From a virus (Duplodnaviria > Caudoviricetes): 64,000 nt of DNA. Under the pieces are notes generated by a model that was given only the letters and a program-made list of their open reading frames with translations, made no database searches and had not been told where the DNA came from. Below, one piece after another: positions 1-58,176 of the stretch. The stretch is taken from the IMG/VR virus record IMGVR_UViG_3300011008_002750, positions 56,855 through 120,854 of that record. One strand, written 5' to 3'. How positions within the stretch are numbered: position 1 is the stretch's first letter; each line of letters begins with the position of its first letter. The translations under genes and the position numbers were made by a program.

Positions 1-2
1 AC

Positions 3-449
3 TTATATGTTCAACAACCAGATTATGACCCAATTAAAGTATTAGTTGAATTTGCAAAACGTGATGATGTTAAAAAAGCTGGTGGAATTTTCAAATATTT
101 AAGTAATAATAGGGTAGAGGTTTCTGTTAATTCTAATCATGAATATGAATATAATTTTAGTGAGCCTATTCGTCCTAGTAGAGAATTATATGCTCATGAG
201 TTAAATGATTTATTAGTATGGTATAATATGTCATGTGCACTTGACAAAGAAAATCATAAAATTGCAGTGACAGACTTTGAAGGAAAGGTTGAAGAGCATG
301 AAGTTTTTGAATATGTAAAAATTCAACAATATATTGATGCTGAAGAAGATTTTGCAATTGATTATGTAGATATTAATGATTATTTGGAAAATCCATTTCT
401 TCATAGGTGGATTGCAAAAGAATATATCAAAAAAATAAAACAAGCATAA
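3..449 (+). CDS. Hypothetical protein, 5'-truncated by the window edge
   Basis: Frame 3 is open from position 3 (LYVQQPDYDPIKVLVEF...) to TAA at 447-449 and includes track ORF 228..449. Confidence 0.75.
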   Translation, partial: LYVQQPDYDPIKVLVEFAKRDDVKKAGGIFKYLSNNRVEVSVNSNHEYEYNFSEPIRPSRELYAHELNDLLVWYNMSCALDKENHKIAVTDFEGKVEEHEVFEYVKIQQYIDAEEDFAIDYVDINDYLENPFLHRWIAKEYIKKIKQA

Positions 450-488
450 ATTTTTGTTATATAATAAAAGAAATTAAAAAGAAATCTA

Positions 489-716
489 ATGGAAAATAAT
501 ACAAATCCAAAACAACAATTATTTACTGAATTATTTCGTCCAAAAACATTAGAACAAGCTGTAATAGTTCCGAGAATTAGAGAAGAATTATCTAAAGGGT
601 TGGTAGACAATATTTTATTTAGTGGAAAACCTGGAAGTGGCAAATGTTTAGGTTATGATGAAAAAATAGATGTATATGTTGATGAAGAAACATATAATAT
701 TCTATTTAAAGAGTAA
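489..716 (+). CDS. Clamp loader ATPase (RFC/T4 gp44-like) N-extein fused to a 23-aa split-intein N-fragment
   Basis: LFTELFRPKTL and NILFSGKPGSGK (Walker A) are followed directly by CLGYDEKIDV (intein block A, Cys at 645), then TAA. Confidence 0.9.
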   Translation: MENNTNPKQQLFTELFRPKTLEQAVIVPRIREELSKGLVDNILFSGKPGSGKCLGYDEKIDVYVDEETYNILFKE

Positions 717-779
717 ATGTGATTTTTTTCTTTCCACATCCAAGATAAATATAATATAAAATATTATTTTATTAAAGAT

Positions 780-2174
780 ATGGAAGAAAAATATATTATT
801 TTTAGAGATTTACCATTATTATATATGCTAAAAAATGAAATAGTATAGTAGTTAGAAAAATATAATATAATTACTATATATGATTTTTCTATTGCAGATT
901 TAGTTAATAATAATGTTAAATCTTTTTATATATCTAATAATAAATTTGAAGAACGTAAATATCCGCATTCAACTTGGTGTAGATATAATAAAAAATGTAA
1001 ATAGTATATAACATTTGATACATATAATTTATTATATAATAATTATTTTTATATAAAAGATAATATTATATAGTTTAGTAATATTAAAGATTATCCAAAT
1101 GAACTTAGAAAGCTTACTGCTATATTAAGTCATGATAATTGCATTAATACAGTTAATAATACATTTCAATATTTAAAAAATAATAATTTATTAAAATTTG
1201 AAAATAATATTATTATATGTGATTGTAAAGAATTTGTAAAAACTTATAGAGCAATTGCAGATCATCCTTTATGGTTTATAGGTAATAATGAAAATATAAA
1301 TTATAATAATAAAGAAAATTTATCAAATATACAAAAATTTTTAATAGATGGTGGAAATATTAGAGATATTACACCTGATTCAATTTTATGTATAAAATGG
1401 TGGTTAGCCCGAGGATGGGATGAAAATTATGCTAAACAAAAAATATCAGAACTTCAAAGTAAAAATTCATTAAAATATTAGAATAAACGAGAACAAAATC
1501 CAGAATAGTATAAAGACATATAGAAAAATCAAATTGGTTATTGGATAAAGTTAGGTTATTCTGAATAGGAAGCTAAAGAAAAAGTTAAAGAAAGACAATA
1601 GACATTTACATTAGAAAAATGTATTCAAAGATATGGTGAAATTGAAGGGCGGAAAAAATTCGAAGAGCGCTAGAAAAAATGGTAGAATACATTATAGTCT
1701 AAAGATGATTATATTGAAGTAATAATAAAAAGGTGTTCTCATTCATTTTATTCAAATATATCTTAGGAATTATTTGATAAATTATATTAGTTATTACAAG
1801 AAAATAATATAAATTGCAATGTTTATTATCATAATTTAAATCATGAATGGGGATTTGGAATTAAAAAGCACGGTGGAGTTTTATATGATTTTGTTATTCC
1901 TGAATTAAAATATGCAATAGAATTTAATGGAAATAGATTTCATCCAAATAAAGAAAAATTATCTAAAGAAGAATTTAAAAATTGGACAAATCCTTGGGGA
2001 GTTACCGCTAAAGAACAATATAAACATGATATGTTTAAAAATAATGCAATAATTAATAAGGGTTTTACTTTAGATATTATTTGGGAAGATGAATATTTAG
2101 AAAACAAAGATAAAATTTTAAATATAATATTAAACAGAATTAAACAAATATATAATGGCACAAAAATTAGTTAA
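780..2174 (+). CDS. Free-standing Vsr/DUF559-like PD-(D/E)XK homing endonuclease, 464 aa (TAG=Gln)
   Basis: Open from ATG 780 to TAA 2172-2174 with about 14 in-frame TAG. C-terminal YDFVIPELKYAIEFNGNRFHP...IIWEDE; repeated YW-x-x-x-GYSE-x-EAK motifs. Overlaps the next start codon. Confidence 0.85.
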
Positions 2175-3384
2175 AGTTAATATTTCTATTGGAGAGTTAT
2201 TTGATAAACTTAATTTAAATAATTCTAAATATGAAGAAACGCAACATTCTAAATATAAAGTTTATATAGAAAATGTTGATGGAGAAATTGTTCCTATTTT
2301 AGGATATGTTAAAAAACGTGTAAATTTATGTAAGTATACATATAAAGCCGTAGCAAATGATAATGTTTATACATTAACATGTAGTGATAAACATATTCTT
2401 ATTGATGAATATGGAAAAAATTGTTTAGCTAAAGATGCAAATTATTGTCAAAATATATATGATGGCAAATTAGAAAAAATTAATGAAGAAGTACTAGGTG
2501 AAGGCGATGCATATGATATTGCTATAAAGGCACCACATTTATATTTTACATCTAATGGAATTATTCATCATAATACTACTTTAACTCGTATCCTTGCATC
2601 TGAATGTGATGACCCACTTTATATTAATGCATCTTTGGAACGCGGCATTGACACTATTCGTGAAAAGATTATTAGTTATGCTTCATCTTCATCATTATGG
2701 GGTGGTGAAGAAAAACTTAAAGTTATTATTCTTGAGGAGTGCGACAATTTGACAAATGACGCTTGGTCAGCTCTTCGTGCAACTATTGAACAATTCCATA
2801 GAACAACTCGATTTATTGGAAACTGCAACTATATTGAAAAAATTCCAGAGCCAATTCAATCACGTTTCAATTGCATCCCAATTGAACCAATTAATCAAGA
2901 GGAAGAAGCATATTTGTTAAATGGTTTTACTGAGAGAGCTAAATTAATTTTGAATGCGTGCCATATCACTTATAAAGACGAGGATGTTGAGAAATTTGTG
3001 AAGGCAGATTTTCCAGATATGCGGTCAATCATTAAAAAGATTCAACAATTATATACAAGAGGCATTACAGAATTAACTCCTGCAACATTAGGGACAACTT
3101 TTGACTGTGGACAATTATTCAATATAATTATGACTCCCGGCAACCCTACAGAGAATTATAAAGCTTTAGTAGCAGATTGGTCAACAAAAGCTGAAGATGG
3201 GTTATTGATGCTTGGACAACAATTCCCAAATTATATTCAGACGGTTTGTCCAGATAGAATAAATAAATTACCAATGGTTATTATAACCATTTGTGAATAT
3301 CAATCTCAACTTCATTATGCAATTGACAAATTTATTGTTTTGTTGGCATTGATATATAAATTACAAAATATTATGAATAGTTAA
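2155..3384 (+). CDS. Split-intein C-fragment (140 aa) fused to clamp loader C-extein
   Basis: Intein blocks B (LTCSDKH), F (AYDIAI) and G (NGIIHHN, ending 2574) are followed by TTLTRILA, then INASLERGID, IILEECD (Walker B) and SRF: RFC/gp44 signatures. Confidence 0.9.
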   Translation: MAQKLVKVNISIGELFDKLNLNNSKYEETQHSKYKVYIENVDGEIVPILGYVKKRVNLCKYTYKAVANDNVYTLTCSDKHILIDEYGKNCLAKDANYCQNIYDGKLEKINEEVLGEGDAYDIAIKAPHLYFTSNGIIHHNTTLTRILASECDDPLYINASLERGIDTIREKIISYASSSSLWGGEEKLKVIILEECDNLTNDAWSALRATIEQFHRTTRFIGNCNYIEKIPEPIQSRFNCIPIEPINQEEEAYLLNGFTERAKLILNACHITYKDEDVEKFVKADFPDMRSIIKKIQQLYTRGITELTPATLGTTFDCGQLFNIIMTPGNPTENYKALVADWSTKAEDGLLMLGQQFPNYIQTVCPDRINKLPMVIITICEYQSQLHYAIDKFIVLLALIYKLQNIMNS

Positions 3385-3386
3385 TT

Positions 3387-3734
3387 ATGTGGTTTATAAA
3401 AGTAGATGATGATTTAACATTAGAAAATGTATGTGATATTACTAATACAGAGCCTAAGGCTTTGTTTAATCCATTACATGAAGATGTTTTGAATATTATT
3501 TTGCGTGATGTAGATGATCATACGCAACATACTAATAATATGATATATACAAATATCACTATTCCATTTGAAAATGTTGATTTGACTATGAAAAATGGAG
3601 TTCCATTTGGAGAAATCGATAAAGATATTACCGGGCTTAGTTTATATATTGATGAAGACAATTATGCACTTGCAGACCAAATTATGAATTCATTTGATGA
3701 ATGGGATGCACGCGCAATGATGGCAAAACTTTAA
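3387..3734 (+). CDS. Hypothetical protein
   Basis: 115-aa ORF immediately after the clamp loader; TAA stop. Confidence 0.75.
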   Translation: MWFIKVDDDLTLENVCDITNTEPKALFNPLHEDVLNIILRDVDDHTQHTNNMIYTNITIPFENVDLTMKNGVPFGEIDKDITGLSLYIDEDNYALADQIMNSFDEWDARAMMAKL

Positions 3735-3756
3735 AAGATTTTAAAATATGATAAGA

Positions 3757-3786
3757 AAAATGAGATTCAAATTTGAATCTCATTTG
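3757..3786. terminator. Bidirectional hairpin terminator between convergent genes
   Basis: aaatgagattcaaa / tttgaatctcattt inverted repeat flanked by A/T tracts. Confidence 0.65.
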
Positions 3787-4679
3787 TTTTGTAATTGTTT
3801 TGGTTTATATTTTTCTTCAATAGGACAATTCATAAACACACTTTCATAATTATAATATGGATAAAATACCCCACTTGTATCAAATATATCTGCATCATTT
3901 TTAAATTTCCAATTTGAAATATCCTAATTGAATGAATCTGCATCTAAAAACATACATTTTAATAATTTGACGTTAGACACATCCCATTTACCAATTGGCT
4001 AATTAAATTTTTTAGCAAATGTAAACATATGTTCCATATTTACAACTTTAGAAACATTCCAATTAGAAATGTTTTGATTAAATTCGGCACAGCCCCAAAA
4101 CATTCCTTCCATAGTTTTAGCATTAGATACATCCCATTTAGAAATATCACAATTAAATGGATATTGCTTCTTAAATTTATCGGCTTGTGGATAATCTAAG
4201 TAATCAGTAAAATTAAATAAGAAACTCATATCTGTTACGCCAGAAACATCTATCCAATTCAAATCACAATTTGGCCCATTTTCTTCAACTGCTTCAATTA
4301 TAATTTTCTACAAATCTCTTTTTGATGTAATTTTTCTAAATTTACTATCAAAAAGTGGTTTATTTTTTTCATAAATTTCATATAAATCTTCATCTAATTC
4401 ATTTGGATTATATCTATTAATCATATATCTAATAATATAAAACTATTCTTCTGTTATACCTAATTCTTTAAGATATAATGGCAAATTTTTAAATACAGCT
4501 TGCCACATTTCATTAGATAATGGTCTATTATGTTGAATATTTTGCGCTATTAGTTTTTCAAATGGCACTGATACCTATTTAGATTTAATATTCTAAACTT
4601 GTTCATCATCGTCAAAATCATCTAGGGCTAGCTAGATACCATTATTTATTGCTTCTAATATTTTATTATAGTTTTTCAT
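3780..4679 (-). CDS. DUF285/BspA-type repeat protein with conserved MKNYNKILEA leader, 299 aa (TAG=Gln)
   Basis: FNxxIxxWDVSNVxxMxxMF repeats (FN-CAA-NI versus FN-TAG-PI and FN-TAG-DI); ATG 4679 to TGA 3780. Confidence 0.85.
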
Positions 4680-45733: not shown

Positions 45734-45823
45734 ATGTCGGTATGCAAGTTGGTTGAAGCACATAATCTCCAAAATTATTAGAATTTTAATATTCTCACGT
45801 GGGTTCGAATCCTACCCGGCATG
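45734..45823 (+). tRNA. tRNA-Trp(CCA) with a long variable arm
   Basis: ataat-ctccaaa-attat anticodon arm; GGTTCGAATCC T-arm; about 20-nt extra arm. Confidence 0.75.
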
Positions 45824-45848
45824 CAACAAATAAGATCTTTGAAATAAC

Positions 45849-45997
45849 GCGTTCGTAGCTCAGTCGGTTTTAGAGCATCTGACTTTCTAGTGATGAGAAC
45901 ACTAAAAAATCTCAGAGTTCATTATGGATGTATGTAAGTTCGATTCTTACATGAACTCCTAATCAGAGGGTCGTGGATTCGAGTTCCACCGGACGCA
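45849..45997 (+). tRNA. tRNA-Lys(TTT) with a 73-nt anticodon intron (45887-45959)
   Basis: Removing the insert restores tctga-cttttaa-tcaga and a canonical cloverleaf. Confidence 0.82.
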
Positions 45998-46011
45998 CAA
46001 AATATAAAATA

Positions 46012-46084
46012 GTCCCTTAGCTCAGTTGGTTAGAGTGCTTCCCTTACATGGAAAAAGTCGTAGATTCGAATTCTACAGGGACTA
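46012..46084 (+). tRNA. tRNA-Val(TAC)
   Basis: Cloverleaf; loop cttacat. Confidence 0.88.
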
Positions 46085-46122
46085 CAAATAAAAGCGAACA
46101 TTGAAATATTGATTTAATATAT

Positions 46123-46195
46123 GGACCAGTAGCTCAAATAGTAGAGCACATCCCTGAAGAGGATGGTGTAGGCGGGGCAGTACCGTCCTGGTTCG
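46123..46195 (+). tRNA. tRNA-Phe(GAA)
   Basis: catcc-ctgaaga-ggatg; variant T-loop ggcagta. Confidence 0.8.
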
Positions 46196-46275
46196 CAATT
46201 TAAAATTAAAGCGAACATACCATTTTTACCATAATTCCATAAATAAATATAATATAAAAAATAAGTATTATTAAA

Positions 46276-47217
46276 ATGGAAAATTTTAAATGTATTTGTG
46301 GTAAAGAATTTAATAATAAATTATCATTAGGTGGGCATAAAACATCTTGTAAAATATATTAGGAAGAAAAACAAAAATAGTTAAGTATTTTATAGGAAAA
46401 TGAAATTAATTATTAGTATATATGTAATTGCGGTAAACGATTTAAAACATAGAGTAGTTTAAATTCACATGCAAGATGGTGTGAACAATATTAGAAAAAA
46501 GATTTTTCATCAAAATATTTTAATAAAGAATTAAAAATTTTTAGATGTGAATGTGGTTTCGAAACAAATAAAGGTAATTCGATTAATGGTCATTTTTCAC
46601 GATGTAATATACATAGAGCAGCTATTGGTAAAGAATCGGCACCAATATATAAAAATTTAAAAATTAGTTAGTATAATTTTAAAAATCTTGATAAAGAGCA
46701 ATTATTAAAAATTTGTTATAAAGGTATTGAAAGCCAACGAAAAATGTATAAAACTGGAGAATTGGTTGGTTGGTGTAAAGGATTAACAGCTGAAACAGAT
46801 GAAAGAATTGCTAAAATAGTTCAAACTCAAAAAAGAAATGGTATAACTGGAGGTTATAGAGAAAATTCAGGAATATGCAAACATGGAAAATATAATGGAA
46901 TTCATTGCGATAGCACTTGGGAATTAGCTTATATTTTATATTGTAATGATAATAATATTCCAATAAAAAGATGTGATAAAGTATTTGATTATTATGATAA
47001 TGAAGGAAATAAACATCGATATTATCCAGATTTTATAATAAATGAAAATGAAATTATAGAAATTAAAGGTAGAATTACTGACTAGTGGAAATTAAAGCTT
47101 CCGATAGTTGAAAGAGAACATATAAAAGTTTTATATAAAGAAGATATGAAAGATATTTTAAATTATTGTTATGAAAAATATGGTAATGATTTAACATATC
47201 TTTATGATAAAAAATAA
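46276..47217 (+). CDS. Zn-finger + TnsA-like PD-(D/E)XK endonuclease in the tRNA cluster, 313 aa (TAG=Gln)
   Basis: Three CxCG..F...SL..H...C repeats; CDSTWE, RYYPDF, IEIKG. Confidence 0.82.
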
Positions 47218-47220
47218 TAT

Positions 47221-47306
47221 GACCGTATGTCCGAGTGTTCGAAGGTATGGCACTGCAAATGCCATTGGAGAAATCCGCATCGGGAGTTAGAATCTCTCTA
47301 CGGTCA
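47221..47306 (+). tRNA. tRNA-Cys(GCA) with a long variable arm
   Basis: tggca-ctgcaaa-tgcca; acceptor gaccgta/tacggtc. Confidence 0.75.
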
Positions 47307-47320
47307 CATATTAAATTATT

Positions 47321-47404
47321 GGAGATACCAACTGTCGAGGAGACGGGACCGCTTGCTAAGCGGATCGCACCTTCGGGTGTCCGGGTCGGAACCGGGGATC
47401 TCCG
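47321..47404 (+). tRNA. tRNA-Ser(GCT)
   Basis: ccgc-ttgctaa-gcgg, long variable arm, G73. Confidence 0.75.
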
Positions 47405-47416
47405 CAAAATAAATAC

Positions 47417-47497
47417 ACCCCAGTAGGCGAATAGGTATAGCCACATGCCTAAGGCGCATGGTTTAATTACGCGAGGGTTCGAGTCCCTCTTGGGGTA
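47417..47497 (+). tRNA. tRNA-Leu(AAG)
   Basis: catgc-ctaaggc-gcatg; type II body, A73. Confidence 0.8.
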
Positions 47498-47581
47498 CGA
47501 AAATAGTATTTAAGAGAGTAAAAATTTGAAACTTTGCTCTCTTTTTTCATATAATAAATAACAAAATTGTATATATAGACA

Positions 47582-48466
47582 ATGAATAAAAAGAATTTAT
47601 ACAATAAAATAATGAAATCGGTTTCAAAAGAAGTTAAAAAAACTTTAAATGAAGGTTTACCATTAGAACATTATAATGATGATTATGATGAAATTAATTA
47701 TATATTTGATTTAGATGAATTGCTAGATGATGAAAAAGCATTAAAATATTATGATAAATTTCCATTAAGATTTCTTAGTGCTAAGGTATTTGGTGGTCCA
47801 TTTATGCTTAATGAAGGAAAAATTGAATTACTAGAAAAAACTCCATCAAGAACGTATTCTATTGAAGAAGTTACAAAAGTTGGGAGATCATTATTAGGAT
47901 TAGAACCCGGCTGGATTAAAACACTAATTGCTGCAAATAAAATAGAAACATGTGTTTTAATATTAGATAAATTTGATAATGTTAATTTTATTATTGAAGG
48001 AATGAAAGCATTTGGCTGGACATTTTCATATGATGAAACCACAATTATGGATCAACATGTATTCAAATCATTGCATTTTGATCCAATGTTTCAAGATGTA
48101 GTAAATGAAGAAATTAAAAAATGCAGTTTATTGAAACACTGGACGCCATTTTATAATTTTAACAGTATTATGCAAAATGGATTGATACCGAAATCTAATA
48201 ATTTTATATTTTCATATCCACCTAAAATTCATTTAATTAAAGGAACTGCAGATAATTATGAAATAATGAATATTGGTGAGCAATTATGTCTTGCAAATAA
48301 AGACCCTCGAAATAATAGACATTATGTTTTGTTAAACATTAATGCAAAAGACTTATTAGATAAAATTGATTTCTTTTATGATCCTCGATATGAATGGGGA
48401 TATTATACAAAGCAGCCTATAGACAAACAATATATAACTAAAAATATGAATTATCATTTTGAATAA
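47582..48466 (+). CDS. Hypothetical protein with a possible Tpt1/KptA-like (ART-fold) C-terminus
   Basis: LKHWTP....SI...GLIPK...KIHL...VLLNI pattern; N-terminus MNKKNLYNKIMKSVSKEVKKTLNE. Confidence 0.6.
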   Translation: MNKKNLYNKIMKSVSKEVKKTLNEGLPLEHYNDDYDEINYIFDLDELLDDEKALKYYDKFPLRFLSAKVFGGPFMLNEGKIELLEKTPSRTYSIEEVTKVGRSLLGLEPGWIKTLIAANKIETCVLILDKFDNVNFIIEGMKAFGWTFSYDETTIMDQHVFKSLHFDPMFQDVVNEEIKKCSLLKHWTPFYNFNSIMQNGLIPKSNNFIFSYPPKIHLIKGTADNYEIMNIGEQLCLANKDPRNNRHYVLLNINAKDLLDKIDFFYDPRYEWGYYTKQPIDKQYITKNMNYHFE

Positions 48467-48485
48467 TAGAGGCTAAAAAATAAAG

Positions 48486-48525
48486 CTTCTATTTTTTATT
48501 TTGAAATATTTTTATTAATTTTGCA
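48486..48525 (+). promoter_or_regulatory. Promoter copy 6
   Basis: Same motif and spacing. Confidence 0.8.
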
Positions 48526-48548
48526 TTGTAATTAAAAATAATATAGTT

Positions 48549-48767
48549 ATGAGAATCTACACAGTTTCAAACGAACAAGGCTATCATGAAGAATTTTATA
48601 GTCTTCCAGCAGCTAAAAAGGCAATGAAAGAACACAATGCCAAAGGTTTTATTACTGCAGTTAGAAGCAATGGTGATTGGGAACCTATGGGAGAAATAAA
48701 ACTCAAAAGAAACAATGCATCAATGCTTGCAGGAGCAACAAAACAAACAATAAATAATTATAATTAA
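48549..48767 (+). CDS. Hypothetical protein
   Basis: 72-aa ORF after the promoter. Confidence 0.7.
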   Translation: MRIYTVSNEQGYHEEFYSLPAAKKAMKEHNAKGFITAVRSNGDWEPMGEIKLKRNNASMLAGATKQTINNYN

Positions 48768-48778
48768 AAATACTACAA

Positions 48779-49018
48779 TTGACAACAGAAGAAAGACTTG
48801 CTGCACGAGAGCAGCGTCGTAAAGAAGATCAACAATTTCGTGAAAATCTTATTGAAGAGATTGCTAATGAATATGATTTTGGTCGTGCAATAGCTAAAGC
48901 ATGTGTTGATAAAGGTTGGGAAGATGGACATGCATATGGTTATAGTGAAGTTAGAACACAATCTGAAATTGCAGCTGATTTCGCAGAGAAAATTCTTGCA
49001 ATTATTGGACCGGCATAA
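48779..49018 (+). CDS. Hypothetical protein (TTG start)
   Basis: WEDGHAYGYSEV motif. Confidence 0.7.
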   Translation: MTTEERLAAREQRRKEDQQFRENLIEEIANEYDFGRAIAKACVDKGWEDGHAYGYSEVRTQSEIAADFAEKILAIIGPA

Positions 49019-49037
49019 TTATGAAACTAAAAATAAT

Positions 49038-49703
49038 ATGAGTGAAGTTAGTCGATATTTCGAGAAACAAATTTTGCAGTTTGATTCATCTAAGGTGAAG
49101 ATATTCTTTACCTCAGATACTCACTGGAACCATACCAACATAATTAAATACTGTAAGCGCCCATTTGCTAATGTAGAAGAAATGGACGAGGTGTTAATTG
49201 AGAATTGGAATGCTGTTATTGGTTCAGATGATATTGTTTTTCATCTTGGTGATTTTGCATGGGGTGGTTCTGAAGTTTGGAATAATGTTCTTGATAGATT
49301 GAACGGACATATTTATTTGATTCTTGGAAATCATGATATGAAAAATTTGCGTCAAGAATATATTTCAAAATTTGAAGCAGTTGCATTTCAGATGTATATT
49401 TATATTGACGGACGCGCAGTTTATTTGAATCATTACCCATTCCTTTGTTATGGTGGATCATATCGCGGTGAGCAAGCTGTATGGCAATTATTTGGGCATG
49501 TACATTCTCAGCCACAACATTATAATATTGACGATATAAATGACCTAGAAGTGAAAGAAATTCTCGGTAAAGACACTTATAGACTTCAGTATTTGATGCC
49601 CACTCAGTATGATGTAGGTGTAGATAATAATAATTATAAACCTATTAGTTGGGAAGAAGTTAAAGAGAAAATTCAAAAACAAATTGAAGCAAGTGAAGAT
49701 TAA
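49038..49703 (+). CDS. Calcineurin-like metallophosphoesterase
   Basis: TSDTHW.H, HLGDF, LGNHD, NHYP, GHVH, DVGVD. Confidence 0.9.
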   Translation: MSEVSRYFEKQILQFDSSKVKIFFTSDTHWNHTNIIKYCKRPFANVEEMDEVLIENWNAVIGSDDIVFHLGDFAWGGSEVWNNVLDRLNGHIYLILGNHDMKNLRQEYISKFEAVAFQMYIYIDGRAVYLNHYPFLCYGGSYRGEQAVWQLFGHVHSQPQHYNIDDINDLEVKEILGKDTYRLQYLMPTQYDVGVDNNNYKPISWEEVKEKIQKQIEASED

Positions 49704-49743
49704 CTTCTATTTTTTAGTTTAAAGATAAAATATTATTTTTGCA
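49704..49743 (+). promoter_or_regulatory. Promoter copy 7
   Basis: Same motif and spacing. Confidence 0.8.
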
Positions 49744-49771
49744 TCATAATAATAAAAAATAAATACTAATT

Positions 49772-50464
49772 ATGAAAATAAAAAATCAAACTTTGATGTA
49801 TTTATATCGTCAAGAAAAATGTCTTGGCCGTGATAATGATAGTTGCTGTAATGTAGACGAAAATCATAAAATTCGCTATATTCTTTCACCATATGAGTTA
49901 AAACCAGATTATGGAAAGATGTATGCAGATATGAAAGAAAACAAAGAGATGACATATGATGATTGGTTTTCAAAAAATTGGTATCCGGTTTTTTCCAACT
50001 TTAATGCAAAAGATTGCAAAATAATCGAAGAAACATATTGTGATGGTTGGAACGGTTTATTTAATATGTTACCCGTATTAAATAATGATATGTGCGCAGA
50101 AGTTGTATTCACGACTGAATATGCGGCTGATATAGCAGATGATTATGTTGAAGAGATTCTTAAAAAACAAAAAGATGATATTAGAGATTTGTTAGATAAA
50201 ATTAATCATACTGCAACATATGAATGTTATGTTTTGAAACGTAGATTAGATGATGTTATGCTTGGATGGGAAAATGATATACCATTTTATGAGTTGGAGG
50301 ATGGTTATGTAAAATGGGATGTACATGGTAGAGCAAATGTAACACTGTTATTTGATAAAAATCTTTGTGATTTATTTGATGATAATACAGAATATGATGA
50401 AAATGGTGAATATGTTCCATATAAAGCAACGGTAACAATTTCAAGTAATATTAAAAGATTATGA
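49772..50464 (+). CDS. Hypothetical protein
   Basis: 230-aa ORF. Confidence 0.72.
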   Translation: MKIKNQTLMYLYRQEKCLGRDNDSCCNVDENHKIRYILSPYELKPDYGKMYADMKENKEMTYDDWFSKNWYPVFSNFNAKDCKIIEETYCDGWNGLFNMLPVLNNDMCAEVVFTTEYAADIADDYVEEILKKQKDDIRDLLDKINHTATYECYVLKRRLDDVMLGWENDIPFYELEDGYVKWDVHGRANVTLLFDKNLCDLFDDNTEYDENGEYVPYKATVTISSNIKRL

Positions 50465-51249
50465 AAAAGCGAAGTAAAGATAGTCTCGGTGATCGCATGA
50501 AGCGATATGAGGCAGTAAGTAAAACTTCATTAGTTCAAAGAATGCCAGTTATTCTTCGTCTTGATGGATGTCATTTTCATACATTTACTAAAGGATTTGC
50601 AAAACCTTTTGATGATGTAATGATTAAATCTATGCAAGATACAATGAAATATTTGTGTGAAAATATTCAAGGTTGTGTATTTGGATATACGCAATCGGAT
50701 GAAATCACCCTTGTATTGGTTGATTATAAAAATTTGAATTCAAGTCAATGGTTTGATAATGAGGTTCAAAAGATGTGTTCAGTTGCAGCATCAATGGCAA
50801 GTATGCATTTTAACAAATGTTTTGCATATAATGCAATAAATGCAGGAAATGAAGAAGAATTGTTTAAAAAACACTGGGATGCATTTACTAAACATGGAGC
50901 ATATTTTGATTGCCGTGCATTTAATGTTCCTAAAGAGGATGTTTGCAACTGTATACTTTGGCGGCAGCAAGACGCGACAAGAAATTCAATTCAATCACTG
51001 GCACAATCTCAATTTTCTCAAAAACAAATGCACGGTTTAAGTTGTAATATGTTGCAAGATAAATTGATGGTTGAAAAAGGAATTAACTGGAATGATCTAG
51101 ATACTGTTAAAAAACGTGGTTCTGCTTGTATTAAAAATTATTATACAGAAAATGTAAAAACACGTTCTAAATGGGTTATTGATTATAATATGCCTATTTT
51201 GTCACAAGACAGAAATTATGTTGAACAATTTGTAATATTGTCAGATTGA
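50461..51249 (+). CDS. thg1: tRNA(His) guanylyltransferase / Thg1-like 3'-5' polymerase
   Basis: RMKRYE, RLDG.HFH.FT, YTQSDEI, FDCR, WRQQDA.RNSI, GINWN, KRG. Confidence 0.93.
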   Translation: MKKRSKDSLGDRMKRYEAVSKTSLVQRMPVILRLDGCHFHTFTKGFAKPFDDVMIKSMQDTMKYLCENIQGCVFGYTQSDEITLVLVDYKNLNSSQWFDNEVQKMCSVAASMASMHFNKCFAYNAINAGNEEELFKKHWDAFTKHGAYFDCRAFNVPKEDVCNCILWRQQDATRNSIQSLAQSQFSQKQMHGLSCNMLQDKLMVEKGINWNDLDTVKKRGSACIKNYYTENVKTRSKWVIDYNMPILSQDRNYVEQFVILSD

Positions 51250-51364
51250 GGTAATTTTTTAAATATAACTAAATAATTTTTCACAGAAAACAATTTGTTG
51301 TTTTTGGGTTTTTATTTTGGGGTATTGAAATATAGTTTAATAAACATTAAAAATATTAAAAATT

Positions 51365-51592
51365 ATGAAAAAAATTATGGCATTTGTAGTAAGAAATGAA
51401 GATGGAATGCTAAATTTAGTTATGGGTGCTACACCATATAAACTTAATATCCACGGAAATGGATATTGGGCAATTCCTGATAATCAAATCGAAAATTGTT
51501 ATATTGAAGAAATTCAAAATGATAAATTTCCTCAAGTCAAATGGGAAGATGCAGAACCAACTAAAGTTGAATTAACAATTAAAATAAAATAA
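51365..51592 (+). CDS. Hypothetical protein
   Basis: FPQVKWED.EP.KVEL motif. Confidence 0.7.
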   Translation: MKKIMAFVVRNEDGMLNLVMGATPYKLNIHGNGYWAIPDNQIENCYIEEIQNDKFPQVKWEDAEPTKVELTIKIK

Positions 51593-51594
51593 TT

Positions 51595-51873
51595 ATGGAA
51601 AAGAAACTTTTACATTCTGATGAAGAGTATTTTGCTTATTGTGAGCAAGAACAAATTGGTTATATATCTAGACAATATGGGTCTCAATGTTGCGATATTG
51701 AGAATGGCGCTGAATGTCATAATGGTGCTACACTTTATAAAGGAACTAGTTATGAAGAATACTTAAAATTTGATAGTAAACCGTCTCATTATCCATGCAT
51801 ATTAGTGTATTATGATGGACTTGATGATGTAATTCGTGGTATGTTTATTTATCCTGAAGATTTTGAAGATTAA
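51595..51873 (+). CDS. Hypothetical protein
   Basis: 92-aa ORF. Confidence 0.7.
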   Translation: MEKKLLHSDEEYFAYCEQEQIGYISRQYGSQCCDIENGAECHNGATLYKGTSYEEYLKFDSKPSHYPCILVYYDGLDDVIRGMFIYPEDFED

Positions 51874-51875
51874 TT

Positions 51876-52070
51876 ATGACGCAATTTGATAAAGGCTGGT
51901 GGAATTGTTTTAATTCATTTGCCAATAATACAATAAATGACAATGATTCTATTTGTATGGAGGTTCTAAATGGAGCCGGTGTAACAAAGGATGAGGTTGA
52001 AGAAGTATTGCGTAATGGTGATTTATATGGAAATGCATTAAATATTATATATGAATATATAAGAAATTAA
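51876..52070 (+). CDS. Hypothetical protein
   Basis: 64-aa ORF in the operon. Confidence 0.68.
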   Translation: MTQFDKGWWNCFNSFANNTINDNDSICMEVLNGAGVTKDEVEEVLRNGDLYGNALNIIYEYIRN

Positions 52071-52072
52071 TC

Positions 52073-52873
52073 ATGAAACGTTTAGTTATAGGTGACATAT
52101 ATGGACATTGGGATGGATTCAAAAAGATTTATGATCTTGAAAATCCTGATGAGGTTATAATGCTTGGAGATTATTTTGATAATTTTCATGGTTCTGATGA
52201 CAGTATATATGAATGTTATCGGGATATTCTTGATTTGCGTGGTGAACATCTTGCTTTGAAAAAAGGAGATTTTAAGATGTTAATTGGCAATCATGATTTT
52301 CATTATAATCACTGGTTTGAGAAATGTTCAGGGTATCGTTCATCTATGGCACGTAAGAATGCACTTATTTTGAATAATTATTCTCAACATTTACAATTTG
52401 TTTATGTCGATGAAATAAACAATACTATATATTCTCATGCAGGTGTAACAAATACTTGGTTAAAAGAGAATTTAGGAGACAAATATGATAAAGATTCATA
52501 TTTGTTTATTAATGAAATGAATCACCAAGCATTCAAATTTACTTATAAAGGCGGGGGCGATATGTATGGAAACACAATATATGCAAGTCCTATTTGGTGC
52601 CGGTCTCGTTCTTTGAATGAAGATAGTTTAATTAATAAAGATGGTGAGAAGATGGTTCAGATAGTTGGGCATACTCATAGTCAGACACCAATTTGTTATG
52701 ATTTTAATGGTTATGAAATGCCTACACAAGATGAAGATGGAATCAAATTAGTAAATGAACATTTTGAAGATGTTAAAATATATATAATAGATACGATGCC
52801 TAATTATTACATGGTTGAAGAATTAGATGATGATAGGAAATTAGTAAAACGTGAAATTAAACAATTAAAATAA
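52073..52873 (+). CDS. Calcineurin-like metallophosphoesterase (second)
   Basis: IGDIYG, LGDYFD, IGNHD, SHAG, VGHTH. Confidence 0.88.
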   Translation: MKRLVIGDIYGHWDGFKKIYDLENPDEVIMLGDYFDNFHGSDDSIYECYRDILDLRGEHLALKKGDFKMLIGNHDFHYNHWFEKCSGYRSSMARKNALILNNYSQHLQFVYVDEINNTIYSHAGVTNTWLKENLGDKYDKDSYLFINEMNHQAFKFTYKGGGDMYGNTIYASPIWCRSRSLNEDSLINKDGEKMVQIVGHTHSQTPICYDFNGYEMPTQDEDGIKLVNEHFEDVKIYIIDTMPNYYMVEELDDDRKLVKREIKQLK

Positions 52874-52912
52874 TTTTCATTATAATTTATAAAACTTTAA
52901 TTTTTTACAATT

Positions 52913-53536
52913 ATGGGATATGAAGTTCATTTTAAAGGAATGTCCAATGAAGTAATGGACAAATATAATAAGAAAAATAAAGGAATATATGGTTTTTCTT
53001 CTAATGGAGAATATAGGCTTTCTTTGAAAGTTTATACTTTAATGCCTCCAGAAACCCAAGAAAAATTAAGTAGAGTTCCAGATGTTAAGAATGCAGTTTT
53101 TAATATTAAACTTTATCTTGCCGGGCTTGAAAATGAAATTAATCAATCTGAGGAACAATTTGCATATGACAGGTGGAAAGAAGATGGCAAACTCTGGTAT
53201 TGTGGCTGGGAATATTCACATGATTATTGTAATCATACTAAAGAAGAGATTTATGATTATGTTGTTGAAAGATTAACTATTCTTAAATTCTGTGCAGAAA
53301 CTGGAGATTATTTTGATTCTGAAAGTCATTTTGATGATAAGGCCAGGGATATTGACGATATTCTTACATATTTTGAAGATATGATGAGAGAAATCAAGAT
53401 TTATGAAATTATGAATGACCTTAAAGATTATAGAGTTGGAGATGATGAAGATGAAGATAATGCTTATGAAACACATGCCACACAAGAATTATCCGATAAA
53501 AAGAGGGTGGAAATATCAGAAACACCAGAAAAATAA
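52913..53536 (+). CDS. Hypothetical acidic protein
   Basis: 207-aa ORF. Confidence 0.72.
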   Translation: MGYEVHFKGMSNEVMDKYNKKNKGIYGFSSNGEYRLSLKVYTLMPPETQEKLSRVPDVKNAVFNIKLYLAGLENEINQSEEQFAYDRWKEDGKLWYCGWEYSHDYCNHTKEEIYDYVVERLTILKFCAETGDYFDSESHFDDKARDIDDILTYFEDMMREIKIYEIMNDLKDYRVGDDEDEDNAYETHATQELSDKKRVEISETPEK

Positions 53537-53613
53537 ATAAAATAAATAATTAGAAGAAAATAAACTTTTTTCTAAAAATAAATAAAATAAATAATAAAAT
53601 TAAAAAATAATAA

Positions 53614-53797
53614 ATGCAAAATTATAGAGAACATAGTATGATGATTAATACAATTGGTGAACAACGTCCATCAACAGAACAACCATCTGTACTTTATAAT
53701 GATGCCAATTATTAGCTGAAGAGGTAAACCCTAATATCAGGAAACACAATATATAAAAGAAATTCCTTGGGTTTACAATAAACTCAAGGAATTTTTA
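53614..53797 (+). promoter_or_regulatory. Leader uORF (TAG four codons before TAA) plus terminator before tRNA/ncRNA region 2
   Basis: uORF 53614-53727; hairpin aattccttgggttta/taaactcaaggaatt followed by a T tract. Confidence 0.5.
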
Positions 53798-53821
53798 ATT
53801 AAAAAATAAAACAAAATTTAA

Positions 53822-54059
53822 CTTCTATTTTTTAGTTTAAGAAAAAAGTTGTAATTTTGCATTACCAAATTAAAAAAGAGTGTTCTTTAACAAATTGAAA
53901 TAAAGGTTTATTATTCCACTTGAGTTCTGGGAACTTATATGATAAGCGCACAATAAAATCATATTTGGGTGGCAGGTTCGAATCCTGAGTAAACCTCAAA
54001 AAAATAAAGCAAAATTTAACTTCTATTTTTTAGTTTAAGAAAAAAGTTGTAATTTTGCA
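53822..54059 (+). promoter_or_regulatory. Tandem duplicated promoters (copies 8 and 9) driving the RNA region
   Basis: Identical ~50-bp blocks; motif starts at 53822 and 54020. Confidence 0.8.
53903..53997 (+). ncRNA. Degenerate tRNA-like element
   Basis: aggttta/taaacct terminal stem and caggttcgaatcctg T-arm; no clear anticodon arm. Confidence 0.45.
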
Positions 54060-54386
54060 TCGTCATTCAAAAAAATGACAAAGTGATATTTGAAATTTTT
54101 ATTAACTTTTTTGAAAAAGAAAATAAACTTTTTTGAAAACTGTTATATAAAATAATAAATGATAATTGCAAAGAAATTTGCATGAAACATTTAAATGCGA
54201 TCCTTGACGTATTGAGATTAAAATTAAAGAAAGAAATTATTTTTCTATTTAAAGAAATTTAAATGGAAGTCAAATATATTTCGTATCAGTAATTTCTCCT
54301 GTGAAGGTGTTTATACTGATACAAAAGCCGCAACGCTTTGACACAACAAGCGTCACCCTTAAGGGATTAGGAGTTGAGTCGTAATT

Positions 54387-54501
54387 GGATGCGTGAAGCA
54401 GATGGCATGTGCTACTGGAGAAAATCTAAATCGTTTAAACCTCTAATGAGGGAGATAAGGAGAAGTAACAGGCTATGTAGGTTGGAATCCTACTGCATCC
54501 A
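54387..54501 (+). ncRNA. tRNA-like RNA with an expanded central region
   Basis: ggatgcg/tgcatcc acceptor, gtagg-ttggaat-cctac T-arm; no canonical anticodon loop. Confidence 0.5.
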
Positions 54502-54592
54502 CTTTATCAACATAAAACAGAAACATAGATCGAGGTATTAATTGGGAAAAATGACAAAGATCTAAACAGAAATATATTGTTGATATAAAATT

Positions 54593-54749
54593 GTAACCGT
54601 AGTCAAGTGGCCAACGACAGCAGACTGTTTAGTGAATAAAACACTAAAAAATTGAAGATGATATAGTAATGGCTGTAAATAAGTTCGAATCTTATATATC
54701 ATCCTAATCTGCCCCGAAAGGTTCGCAGGTTCGAATCCTGCCGGTTGCG
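54593..54749 (+). tRNA. tRNA-Asn(GTT) with a 76-nt anticodon intron (54629-54704) and a long variable arm
   Basis: Removing the insert gives gcaga-ctgttaa-tctgc; G73 favours Asn over Tyr. Confidence 0.72.
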
Positions 54750-54750
54750 C

Positions 54751-54876
54751 GAGGAAGAATGGTGGTTCAAATCCATCACATATTAGCAGAGTTCAAAACT
54801 CATTAAACTTGGTTAATTGCTAATATTGTAGTTTAGAATTGGTTGTAAAACATCCGTAGTAGGTCCTGGTTTCTTT
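54751..54876 (+). ncRNA. Permuted tRNA-like RNA (T-arm precedes D-arm)
   Basis: ggtgg-ttcaaat-ccatc, then acatattagca/tgctaatattgt stem, then gttt-agaattggttgta-aaac. Confidence 0.45.
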
Positions 54877-55210
54877 AGTGGGGATAAAATTCCATGGCGC
54901 AAACAAAAAGACGAAACTCCACACATTTTCCAGGTAACGCTGGTGGTACATCTATAAGCTTTGAATTGAAAACGCTGAAGCACCAATGTAGGTTGGTAGA
55001 ACCGAGGCCGTAACTCGGATAGATGGCAAAATAGTTAAAAGAAAACAATTTAGAAAGGTCGAGGAATCTCTATTTGTACAAATTGGCATTACGTCACCAG
55101 ACAATATTTGTTGAGGCTCTGAATAGGTCGCTCCTTGGAAGTAGGGGAATTGAGAATACAAATAGCGGGAGAAAGGTAGACTCGTGGGCTGGTTCGCTCT
55201 CCCAATTTTA

Positions 55211-56300
55211 TAGTTGAAGGAAAACAACTTGCCAAATCCTTATTAATTATTTATAAAAACCGCAGGCTCTGGTTGTTGATGATGTAAAATCTAATAAGTC
55301 TGACCTATGGCGCTAATCCTGAAATGATTATTAAGTCAGAGAGTAATCTAAAGTTAGTTTTAAGGTGACTAACATCTTAGTTGAAGGAAAACAACTTAAA
55401 TAAACCTAATTTACTCCTATCGTCTAGTGGTTTAGGACGCTCCCGGGTGGTAACATCAGTTCGAATCTGATTGGGAGTTCTTAGTTGAAGGAAAACAACT
55501 TAAAAAATCTGGCAGAAAACACACAGAGAACTGCATTAGATTAAATTAAATTACTCGTGTTGCGGAGGGAGAAAGCCTCATTAAATAACGAACACTTCAA
55601 AGAGTCTGAGGGCAACCGTGGGCTGTAAGTTTCTTCCTTATAGGGTTCTAGATAATCTATAAGTTTCTTTAACGGGAGCGGAAATAGTTGAAGGAATACA
55701 ACTATAAAAACCATAAGAATCTACCACTTGCACAAGGTAATGAAAAGGAATAGTCGTAATTAATTTAAGAAGTGCGTAAATTAAATTAGGTGGATATATT
55801 TTAACTATAAGAAGGAAAAACTTTATAACCAATTATTAACATACACATAGCGTCGCAACCGCGTCAAGAACGTTAGTTCTGTGTTGAAATAGAGGCATTG
55901 CATGGTAGACAGTAAGTCCTTCGTGTTAATAATTACTATAAGAAGGAGAACTTAATAATCTTCAAAACAACGCCGGTGATTGCTATGATAACCTAGTGGG
56001 TGGTTCCCGCTTCCGGCTCTAATAAGAAGGAAAACTTAAAAACCCAGTTATATGAAGTAGTCAAATTCGTATCGCTTGACCTGAGGTTCTGCCTTGGTAG
56101 TTTAATGAATGATATAAAACATCATATAACCAAAACAATAGTTGAAGGAAAACAACTTAAATAAACCCAGCAACCTTCTATCATTTGATGATACAGTAGG
56201 AGTAATTGTATAGAGTAGTAATAGCACGATGTATCATATGAGAGAGATGGTGCGTGGCTCTCACACTTATAGTTGAAGGAAAACAACTTTAAAAACCCAT
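55211..56300 (+). repeat. Array of 9 hairpin repeats (TAGTTGAAGGAAAACAACT-A-tract-CC and the TAAGAAGGAAAACTT variant) separating unique structured segments
   Basis: Copies start at 55211, 55378, 55482, 55685, 55806, 55937, 56021, 56139 and 56270; an outlying copy at 58377 and a degenerate copy at 55032. Confidence 0.9.
55413..55479 (+). ncRNA. tRNA-Glu-like RNA lacking the anticodon loop
   Basis: actccta/tgggagt acceptor, gtct-agtggttt-aggac D-arm, atcag-ttcgaat-ctgat T-arm; ctccc joins gggtg directly. Confidence 0.7.
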
Positions 56301-56664
56301 TGGCAGTTGAGGGTAATACACTGTACAAAGGACAAGTTGAATGTGAGATGGTCCCAGAAAGTTGACAGACACACAAGACTTTCAAATATACTTATTTTTA
56401 ATTACATAAATTATAGATTGATTGAGTAAAAATTAATCGACTACATTGACGATAGTTTTTCAATAAGGGGGGTAAATTCAAGACAATTTATTTAGGATTG
56501 TCTAAGTAGAATTTATTGCAGTCGGCTGTTGAAAAAACTCGTAGCTTTACCACCGGATTTTTTGTTGTAGAAGACGGGCTTTATAGAATTAGAAAGCGCA
56601 GATTAATTTTTTAAGATTTCTTTTTCAGATTTTCTTTAGCTGATTAAAGTAAAATCTGAAATTT

Positions 56665-56736
56665 GCACCATTAGTATAACGGTTATTATACATGATTTGT
56701 AATCTTGAGATCCTGGTTCGATTCCGGGATGGTGCT
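56665..56736 (+). tRNA. tRNA-Thr(TGT)
   Basis: Loop tttgtaa; cloverleaf. Confidence 0.88.
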
Positions 56737-56952
56737 CAAAATATTTTTCTTCGGGTTTTATATTGTGATTTAAGACGCCATATTGTTAGACGAAACTAAA
56801 ATTATAAAAACTTGGACGTAATAAAAGATTGAACGATAAGCAAAACTTGCCTCAGTGAGTAACCAAATCGAGGAGTAATTAACCACGATTTCTGAGAGCA
56901 CGGATTATTCATACCTGGCCAGGTGGATAATTGAAAGGTTACATTTTTATAT

Positions 56953-57026
56953 TGCCCTGTAGCTCAACTGGCTAGAGCGTCTGATTTTGGTTCAGAAGGT
57001 TGGGGATTCGAACTCCTCCAGGGCAA
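56953..57026 (+). tRNA. tRNA-Gln(TTG)
   Basis: tctga-ttttggt-tcaga; U1 start. Confidence 0.85.
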
Positions 57027-57106
57027 CAAAATTAATTGCATAAAGGAGTTCCTATTTTATTTAATTGCAAATTAAACTTACCATACTTCTCGCGATTAAT
57101 CTAAAT

Positions 57107-57181
57107 TGTCTTGTATATCAGCCTGGTTAGATTGTCATCCTGATAAGATGAAGGTCGTTGGTTCAAATCCAACCAAGACAA
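57107..57181 (+). tRNA. tRNA-Ile(GAT)
   Basis: tcatc-ctgataa-gatga. Confidence 0.88.
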
Positions 57182-57244
57182 CAAAATTGAAAAAATTATT
57201 TTTTAGTTCGAAATAAATATAATATAAAGTAATTCGAACTAATT

Positions 57245-58039
57245 ATGGAAAGCGTTAAAGGAAGTAAAAGAAAATATCATATTTTTTATAAAATAACAAA
57301 TAATATAAATAATCATTTTTATTATGGCGTACATAATACCGATAATATAAATGATAATTATATGGGTTCTGGAAAAAGATTATAGTATGCATATAAAAAA
57401 TATGGTATGGAAAATTTTACAAAGGAGAATTTAAAATTTTTTGATACTGCTAAAGAGGCATTTGAATACGAAGCTGATTATATAACAGAAGAATTAATTA
57501 AAGACCCTAATTGTTATAATATTGAAGGTGGAGGTAAAGGTTGGAATACTATTAATTAGGTATTAGTAAAAGATAAAGATGGAAATACATTTTTAATATC
57601 TAAAAATGATTAGCGATATTTAAATAAAGAATTAGTTAGTGCTTATAAGGGATATATATGTTGTAGAAAAAAAGGTGAAACTGAATTTTGTTGGATACCA
57701 AAAGAATTATACAATAAAAATGAATATGAAACCACATCATCGAATAATGTACCTGTAAAAGATAAATCTGGAAAATTTTATTTAGTATCTAAAGATGATC
57801 CACGATATTTAAATGGTGAATTAGTATCAATTTGGAAAGGTAAACATCATAAAGAAGAATCTAAACAAAAAATGCATAATACATTTTTAAAAATACATCA
57901 TTAGCAAGGCGAAAAAAATTCTCAATTTGGTACATGTTGGATTCATAATGATGAAGAATCTATTAAAATAAAGAAAGAACAATTAGAAGAATATATTTCT
58001 AATGGTTGGGTAAAAGGAAGAAAAATGTTTAAAAAATAA
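57245..58039 (+). CDS. GIY-YIG (Seg-like) homing endonuclease, 264 aa (TAG=Gln)
   Basis: IFYKITNNINNHFYYGVH...YMGSG...KKYG.ENF.KE...YNIEGGG; C-terminal GTCWIHN...GWVKGR. Confidence 0.88.
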
Positions 58040-58043
58040 TTAT

Positions 58044-58117: not shown

Positions 58118-58176
58118 CGAATTAAATAATTAAAAAACAATTAGTTATAAAATTTACATAAACTAACAGATTAAAT

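Follow-up and report, generated by a model that had tools for sequence, protein, structure and literature searches.

The stretch analysed here, referred to as the window, comprises 64,000 nucleotides (nt; positions 56,855 to 120,854) of a single virus record of 120,854 bp and 27.5% GC, IMGVR_UViG_3300011008_002750, which comes from a large phage that is uncultured. Close to its start lies a clamp-loader gene whose Walker A motif is interrupted by coding sequence for a predicted intein, itself divided into two parts with an endonuclease gene between them. Under the standard code (table 11) the locus contains two open reading frames (ORFs), ORF1 at 489-716 (75 residues) and ORF2 at 2155-3384 (409 residues), and no long ORF between them. 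The features, with their evidence in brackets, are as follows.

489 to 644, + strand: N-extein of a gp44/RFC-like clamp loader, 52 residues ending GKPGSGK, the first part of Walker A (PHROG 168 profile; identity to residues 1-52 of the uninterrupted allele L002)
645 to 716, + strand: N-terminal fragment of the predicted intein (IntN), 23 residues (CLGYDEKIDVYVDEETYNILFKE) and a TAA stop (ORF list; family alignment; AlphaFold2 (AF2) model of the relative P0015)
725 to 792, + strand: predicted RNA hairpin in the leader of the endonuclease gene (folding statistics; comparable hairpins in loci L014 and L024)
780 to 2174, + strand: free-standing putative homing endonuclease gene, 464 residues with 14 in-frame TAG codons and a TAA stop (ORF with TAG as sense; PHROG 22677; Vsr-like family profile)
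2155 to 2574, + strand: C-terminal fragment of the predicted intein (IntC), 140 residues (AF2 model; Foldseek and VIA; family profile against PDB; ratio of nonsynonymous to synonymous substitution, dN/dS)
2575 to 3384, + strand: C-extein of the clamp loader, 269 residues and a stop, starting at Thr+1 (TTLTR, the end of Walker A) (PHROG 168 profile; intein-less alleles L001-L003)

ORF1 reads ...GKPGSGK/CLGYDEKIDVYVDEETYNILFKE (a slash marks the extein boundary here and below) and ends in TAA at 714-716. ORF2 has its own ATG at 2155 and opens with 140 residues ending ...NGIIHHN/TTLTR; the start of IntC overlaps the 3' end of the endonuclease gene by 20 nt in a different frame. The profile PHROG 168 (clamp loader of DNA polymerase, 314 positions) matches both ORFs, with residues 4-52 of ORF1 on profile positions 3-55 and residues 141-407 of ORF2 on positions 56-311. 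Because these two ranges adjoin, the exteins abut exactly, with neither gap nor overlap. An uninterrupted clamp-loader gene is present in three IMG/VR contigs (L001-L003), 96-98% identical to the window C-extein. The L002 protein reads ...GKPGSGKTTLTR..., its residues 1-52 are those of ORF1, and it is 97% identical to the C-extein. DNA alignment with this intein-less allele places the insert at window 645-2574, 1930 nt, precisely between the Lys and Thr codons (GK/TT). The insert has a GC content of 21%, as against 30-33% for the exteins (33% in the C-extein). The AF2 model of P0015, a relative in which the intein is contiguous, matches structures of RFC small subunits and T4 gp44, and a Foldseek search with the whole model returned clamp loaders only. 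A sequence-only reading of this DNA had proposed a clamp loader with its Walker A motif GKPGSGK/TT divided over two ORFs, the first ending in an acidic 23-residue IntN with a true TAA stop and the second beginning with a 140-residue fragment that ends HHN before Thr. The coordinates, PHROG 168, the L002 allele and the sequence itself (IntN has a net charge of -5) agree with it on every one of these points.

The motifs and the predicted fold support identification of the insert as a class-1 intein with Cys1, Thr+1 and a HINT fold. Cys1 is Cys53 of ORF1, directly after GKPGSGK; Cys1-Leu2 is invariant in 12 IntN sequences of the family, which share the pattern CLxGxExIxIxI..D..Y.K (family alignment A5). 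IntC contains block B (LTCSDKH), block F (DAYDIAIKAPHLYF) and block G (NGIIHHN), and ends DAYDIAIKAPHLYFTSNGIIHHN/T. Across 14 diverse IntC sequences there is no variation in the block B His (H80), in D121 and H128, or in NGIIHHN; loci were sought with the pattern HLYxTxNGIIHHNT, so that the invariance of this motif, the +1 Thr included, is partly by construction, and 22 proteins found without the pattern carry the same C-terminal motif. That Asn stands exactly at the boundary with the extein follows from the PHROG 168 profile and from the empty-site allele. Mxe GyrA is a known case of a Cys1/Thr+1 pairing (table in PMC11766414), and the short-N, Cys1/Thr+1 intein of the earlier reading holds at the level of sequence (Cys53 of ORF1, Asn140/Thr, IntN of 23 residues).

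IntC alone gave only weak intein matches with phmmer (expectation value, E, 0.03-0.07), and a family profile was needed. Searched against PDB, this profile matched only inteins down to E 0.003 (gp41-1 3e-8, CatC 4e-8, Npu DnaE 1e-7, VidaL 3e-3). For structure searches the intein part was folded separately from the clamp loader. The AF2 model of the window IntC has a predicted local distance difference test score (pLDDT) of 90.8, and all of its top matches in Foldseek and VIA are inteins or HINT domains (Z 10.8-14.6, root mean square deviation (rmsd) 1.9-2.8, 109-132 residues).

Structural alignment sets IntC residues 4/5-140 on Npu DnaE 11-137, Mxe GyrA 11-198, Ssp DnaB 12-154 and gp41-1 11-125; residues 2-140 of the model align with VidaL 17-141 (Z 14.1, rmsd 2.0, 120 residues) and residues 1-139 with PolB16 15-182 (Z 11.4). 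Because the alignments to solved inteins begin at residue 11-17 of the latter, IntC as modelled is a complete HINT domain that lacks strand β1 alone (about the first 11 residues). The split is therefore at the position used by VidaL, PolB16 and the engineered "S1" inteins, and not that of AceL-TerL and Cat, which lies about 16 residues further in, given that CatC residues 11-111 match positions 27-130 of the IntC profile. In the P0015 model, strands at 61-65 and 79-82 (the latter short) flank a helix at 67-73 and are followed by the strand and helix that open the window IntC; this layout indicates that the 23-residue IntN consists of Cys1 and β1 (~12 residues) followed by an acidic helical tail of 11 residues. 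The net charges of IntN and IntC are anticorrelated across the family (rho -0.91, from 12 pairs that are phylogenetically non-independent). An atypical, short-N split had been read from the sequence, and it stands (IntN of 23 residues, blocks B, F and G all in IntC); it can now be placed more precisely, with VidaL and PolB16 and not with AceL-TerL or Cat.

The same split is widespread. Of the 22 database proteins nearest to IntC, 20 begin with IntC and so have the split form, and the other two (P0015 and P0016) have an unbroken intein whose linker at the split point varies. Altogether, contiguous alleles with a variable linker exactly at this point, a comparison for which the earlier reading had looked to related phages, are P0015, P0016, P0203 and P0182, in addition to the intein-less L001-L003; the β1/β2 linker in contiguous examples measures from 5 to ~70 residues. 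The pattern scan identified 17 loci (2 from IMG/VR and 15 from metagenomes) in phages of 23-45% GC. Every one with enough upstream sequence is split, with an IntN of 21-38 residues, and the site is always GK/T, in clamp loaders, ClpA/B-like AAA+ proteins, an ABC-type ATPase, another P-loop protein and a RecA/KaiC-like protein. When the IntC profile was searched against 1.84 billion cluster representatives, there were 1209 matches at E<=0.001 and 329 protein clusters at E<=1e-10. Among the best 150 clusters the match starts at residue 20 or before, the split form, in 129 (86%), and is internal in 21. Thus the view that short-N inteins are rare, which the sequence-only reading took, is true of characterised examples and not of metagenomes, where this family has hundreds of clusters. 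Comparison with two relatives (dN/dS 0.09 and 0.075) shows IntC to be under purifying selection. This, together with the same split in 17 loci and in 129 of the 150 clusters, points to a split state that is functional and kept by selection, and not a one-off lesion.

It is worth adding some observations on the host proteins. The same intein family interrupts ClpA/B-like AAA+ ATPases in other phages at Walker A GK/TE (L007:2-1806, L012:2538-6543 and L024:207-3791); between the halves L024 has a full Vsr-like endonuclease, L012 has 1.18 kb without an ORF and L007 only ~100 nt. Further hosts (L022:212-1597; L014/L017; P0022, P0220 and P0150) are an ABC-type ATPase, another P-loop protein, and RecA/KaiC-like, UvsX/RecA-like and another AAA protein, of which the UvsX/RecA-like protein also holds a second intein-like segment.

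Two polypeptides would be made from the clamp-loader gene, the N-extein with IntN (75 residues) and IntC with the C-extein (409 residues). IntN would supply strand β1 with Cys1, inserting into the otherwise complete HINT fold of IntC. Splicing would then proceed by an N-S acyl shift at Cys1, trans-esterification to Thr+1 and cyclisation of Asn140 aided by His139, with as its product a clamp loader of 321 residues with an intact GKPGSGKTT P-loop. The predicted spliced junction is ...FSGKPGSGKTTLTR....

The alternative that survives best is that the halves associate non-covalently without splicing, or that the gene was killed recently and is tolerated with the help of another clamp loader. There is a precedent for the first in the fragmented NrdA of phage Aeh1, which is reported to assemble by way of mobile-element remnants (PMC3045599), and the incompleteness of the genome record leaves room for the second; the splicing reaction itself is deduced from sequence. 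Nevertheless, all catalytic positions are retained and are invariant across a diverse family, the dN/dS of IntC is low (0.09), and the layout is shared by hundreds of clusters and by relatives whose IntC identity falls as low as 24%. The 121-kb record contains no second clamp loader of the same type. In addition, since the break lies inside the P-loop (GKPGSGK/TT), an unspliced insert of 163 residues would disrupt the nucleotide-binding loop. We consider this alternative improbable.

The frame at 780-2174 is open only when TAG is read as sense, and is fragmented under table 11. Of its 464 codons, in DNA of ~20% GC, 14 are TAG and none is TAA or TGA. PHROG 22677 matches the product at 2e-19. 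Against Pfam, the window endonuclease alone matched only PF18741, at E 0.0027, below the Pfam cut-off; among 26 related sequences PF18741 was found in 15 and DUF559 in 10. A broad family profile (A6) matched Vsr (1VSR/1CW0/1ODG), the catalytic domain of I-Bth0305I (3R3P) and 3HRL in PDB, with E from 7e-4 to 3e-3 and nothing else in PDB below E 0.3. The endonuclease alone and a narrow profile (A1) gave no meaningful PDB sequence match, and an alignment search of IMG/VR with the endonuclease found no relatives. D370, E381 and H388 are invariant in the 26 sequences, and D417 is nearly so. A hidden Markov model alignment sets them on the PDF...WH...ERD motifs of Vsr, with D370 at Vsr D51, H388 at H69, D417 at D97 and E381 a family-specific Glu at Vsr F62 (for the Vsr/EDxHD catalytic residues see PMC2677866 and PMC3239194). 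It is thus supported by sequence comparison that the gene encodes a putative homing endonuclease of the Vsr-like (EDxHD) type with a C-terminal catalytic domain. Upstream of this domain are three tandem repeats of ~25 residues (W/Y-W..GY.E.EAK.K..E.Q), WWLARGWDENYAKQKISELQ, YWIKLGYSEQEAKEKVKERQ and RYGEIEGRKKFEERQKKWQ, at window 1395-1700 (endonuclease residues ~206-305), with several TAG codons within them. These may be a DNA-binding array; no NUMOD module was detected in the endonuclease by Pfam. A Vsr-like endonuclease of 464 residues, in the same orientation between the halves, had been recognised earlier, and the profile and the catalytic residues uphold it, with the caveat, then unstated, that the ORF needs 14 TAG codons to be read as sense.

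Reading TAG as sense is justified by the rest of the genome, in that many long ORFs across the 120,854 bp carry 5-23 in-frame TAG codons and a tRNA with anticodon CTA is encoded at genome 14467-14541, outside the window and ~42 kb upstream of it. On this evidence the genome is TAG-recoded, in the manner of code 15. TAG is probably read as Gln: among the phage's own tRNAs the tRNA(CTA) is closest to tRNA-Gln (UUG), TAG positions in the endonuclease mostly align with Gln in homologues, and one site is CAA in the window and TAG in the relative L021. Other ORFs, both clamp-loader pieces included, are without TAG. A separate observation is that 13 tRNA genes are clustered on the + strand at window 45734-63621 (Trp, Val, Cys, two Leu, Thr, Gln, two Ile, Pro, Glu, Met and Arg).

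These data also bear on the suggestion that 780-2174 is a decayed pseudogene full of stops and that the element is immobile. Under the standard code it does have 14 stops in frame, and decayed endonuclease remnants exist in relatives (69 residues in L019). Against this, all 14 stops are TAG with not a single TAA or TGA, TAG is read through genome-wide, and the catalytic residues listed above are conserved. Furthermore, comparison with the endonuclease of L021 gives a dN/dS of 0.17, with seven TAG sites conserved and the one CAA/TAG exchange already described. A pseudogene is thus highly improbable.

In relatives the endonuclease comes and goes. It is full-length in L011, L021, L014, L017, L020 and L024, and a shorter Vsr-like ORF is present in L023. 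It is absent from L007, L015, L025, L018 and L022, which have spacers of 61-180 nt. In L019 (6330-7159) only a 69-residue remnant of the C-terminus of a Vsr-like endonuclease lies between the clamp-loader intein halves, and in L008 an endonuclease C-terminus abuts IntC at the contig edge; the observation of a remnant covers L019:6330-7159 and L008/L010. To judge from its sequence, the 69-residue remnant is a decay stage of the homing cycle. The start codon of ORF2 is kept in relatives (MAQKL/MTQKL/MSKKL). Relative to L021, the element has diverged less at synonymous sites (pS 0.27) than the C-extein has (pS 0.40; p 0.006). This fits an element that was shared more recently, but a bias in composition could also play a part.

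A further possibility, raised in the sequence-only reading, is that 717-2154 is removed as a group I or group II RNA intron carrying the endonuclease ORF, to give a contiguous, cis-splicing intein; Vsr-like endonucleases of this family do occur in group I introns (I-Bth0305I in recA; PMC2677866, PMC3239194) and there is a stable hairpin in the endonuclease leader, but a cmscan search of window 1-4500 against Rfam 15 gave no match even at E<=10, ORF1 ends in TAA, the ATG of ORF2 is kept, and the endonuclease-free relatives retain the stop, a spacer far too short for a self-splicing intron and a new start, so that this can hardly be correct and is the least probable of the alternatives.

Taken together, it is very probable that the clamp-loader gene is split by an atypical class-1 intein and a Vsr-like endonuclease, and that trans-splicing restores the clamp loader, with homing and late timing of the endonuclease proposed. 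The element would be a mobile one of 1930 nt, a class-1 mini-intein that interrupts a gp44/RFC-type clamp-loader ATPase between the Walker A Lys and Thr, and whose coding sequence is broken in the β1/β2 loop by the free-standing endonuclease gene. The endonuclease would be the engine of its mobility, cutting intein-less alleles (as in L002) during co-infection, with the whole element being copied in.

The timing is suggested by two features. The first is the leader hairpin at 725-792, in which UUUUUUUCUUUCCACAUC pairs with GAUAUGGAAGAAAAA, so that the AUG of the endonuclease (780) sits in the stem. Its minimum free energy is -17.1 kcal/mol (z -3.4), and none of 200 shuffled sequences folds as well; comparable leader hairpins are found in L014 (z -3.1) and L024 (z -5.8). 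The second is codon choice. TAG makes up 14 of the 25 Gln-type codons in the endonuclease and none of the 18 in the clamp-loader pieces (Fisher p 6e-5). Work on recoded phages is the basis for expecting TAG-containing genes to be delayed in a manner dependent on a suppressor tRNA. The clamp-loader pieces, being without TAG, could be made early, and the TAG codons of the endonuclease would need the phage suppressor tRNA. Hence the endonuclease is probably held back until late infection by the start-codon hairpin and its 14 TAG codons. We know of no precedent for a link between stop-codon recoding and the control of mobile elements. A scan for sigma-70 promoters did no better than on shuffled sequences, and no terminators were found in a scan of the locus.

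Several points weigh against the interpretation given above. Splicing, homing and timing are steps that we infer, as distinct from the anatomy, the empty-site allele, the fold, conservation, selection and distribution, which are observed. The record is a fragment and one relative is on a 380-kb contig, which makes a second, intact clamp-loader gene elsewhere possible. Block B has Ser in place of the consensus Thr (SxxH), and relatives have either Ser or Ala there. At both splice junctions (50-59 and 201-216) the AF2 model of the contiguous P0015 is ill-defined, with pLDDT <50. The window's own IntN and IntC, with net charges of -5 and -2, are not charge-complementary overall. Lastly, the hairpin rests on folding statistics and on analogous hairpins in two of the four other full loci.

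In fractured genes, as reported by Dassa, London, Stoddard, Schueler-Furman and Pietrokovski (2009; PMC2677866), the two parts of a split intein are separated by a free-standing endonuclease gene of the GIY-YIG or Vsr-like type; the sequence-only reading had likewise pointed to such genes. By its sequence the arrangement in the window is such a fractured gene, and the clamp-loader locus is a well-supported further example from a large family. It shares with those genes the order and orientation (N-extein and IntN, endonuclease ORF, IntC and C-extein), phage origin, a DNA-replication host gene, a Vsr-like endonuclease, overlapping ORF ends and a leader hairpin, which Dassa et al. likewise reported before the endonuclease (PMC2677866). 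It differs in its host, the clamp loader not being among their eight host enzymes (PMC2677866), and in the TAG-recoded code of the endonuclease. Their inteins, moreover, are broken at the canonical position between N4 and C2, with the exception of terminase (after N1), whereas the window intein is broken after N1.

The natural inteins with a short IntN that have been characterised so far are the TerL group, VidaL and PolB16 OarG. VidaL has an IntN of 16 residues (PDB 6VGV), and PolB16 OarG has an IntN of 15 and an IntC of 168 residues (PDB 8CPN; PMC10189870). The window intein resembles both in the structural position of the split and in its short IntN and long IntC. However, identity to them is only 18-19% (profile E 0.003 to VidaL), its IntN is longer, at 23 residues, owing to the extra helical tail of 11 residues, it has Cys1/Thr+1 where PolB16 has Ser1/Ser+1, and its host gene and insertion site (P-loop GK/T) are different. 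GOS-TerL, AceL-TerL and the consensus Cat have an IntN of 37, 25 and 30 residues, respectively (PDB 6DSL). These too are natural phage split inteins with a short IntN, and CatC (4e-8) ranks second among the PDB sequences matched by the family profile. They differ in having terminase as host and Cys at +1, and relative to Cat the window IntC has ~16 more N-terminal residues (β2 and α1), which in Cat belong to IntN.

The putative endonuclease is comparable to I-Bth0305I of the EDxHD family (Taylor et al., 2011; PMC3239194; PDB 3R3P), in that its C-terminal catalytic domain matches Vsr and 3R3P (E 0.002-0.003) and that it is bipartite with a putative DNA-binding region at the N-terminus. It is distinguished by its size (464 residues, compared with about 31 kDa; PMC3239194), by the three ~25-residue repeats in the absence of a Pfam-detectable NUMOD, and by its location in a split intein and not an intron. 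Inteins in Walker A of a clamp-loader ATPase also occur in cells, in archaeal RFC-S, according to Novikova et al. (2016; PMC4760082). The PolIII-gamma and RFC-S inteins in the passages of that paper considered here are cellular and none is described there as split, unlike the window intein, which belongs to a phage, is split and has a free-standing endonuclease gene.

No published description of a P-loop (GK/T) intein clade was found, the primary VidaL, Cat and GOS-TerL papers being outside that comparison. We propose, tentatively and with more doubt than confidence, that there is a P-loop-specific (GK/T) intein clade, mostly split after β1 (at least 329 clusters), that its essential IntN amounts to ~12 residues with a co-evolving charged helical handle, and that the endonuclease is confined to late infection by the hairpin and the 14 TAG codons.

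Three observations concern the surroundings of the locus. ORF1 and the endonuclease ORF are in one frame (window 489-2174), separated only by TAA-ATG-TGA and 19 sense codons. A fusion of the two was considered and rejected because TAA and TGA intervene, and both kinds are still stops in the recoded code. Downstream, an ORF of 115 residues on the + strand at window 3387-3734 begins 3 nt past the clamp-loader stop and is conserved at the DNA level in L001-L003; it gave no Pfam or PHROG match, and its position is that of gene 62 (the clamp-loader small subunit) in T4. Upstream, the intein-less relatives hold an extra 0.5-1.2 kb between the preceding gene and the clamp loader that is absent from the window (window 443-461, set against L002:3281-3818 and L001:2641-3817).

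For protein semisynthesis, naturally split inteins with a short IntN are in demand, and few have been characterised so far, with an IntN of 15-37 residues (PMC13014065). The window locus adds a candidate of the Cys1/Thr+1 type for protein engineering, and the comparative data suggest a division of IntN into 12 structural residues and 11 that may serve as an affinity handle. Points of note are the size of the clade and its P-loop specificity, and the use of a recoded genetic code for a putative homing endonuclease gene. The related phages show every stage, namely an empty site, a contiguous mini-intein, a split intein with endonuclease, a split intein with a decayed endonuclease and a split intein without one. 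This series illustrates the gene-breaking model of Dassa et al., and shows breakage also outside the canonical site of endonuclease insertion. A recoded endonuclease inside an early gene that avoids TAG makes it testable whether recoding times or contains selfish elements, and the two locks, start-codon hairpin and TAG, would, if real, be a link between stop-codon recoding and mobile-element control.

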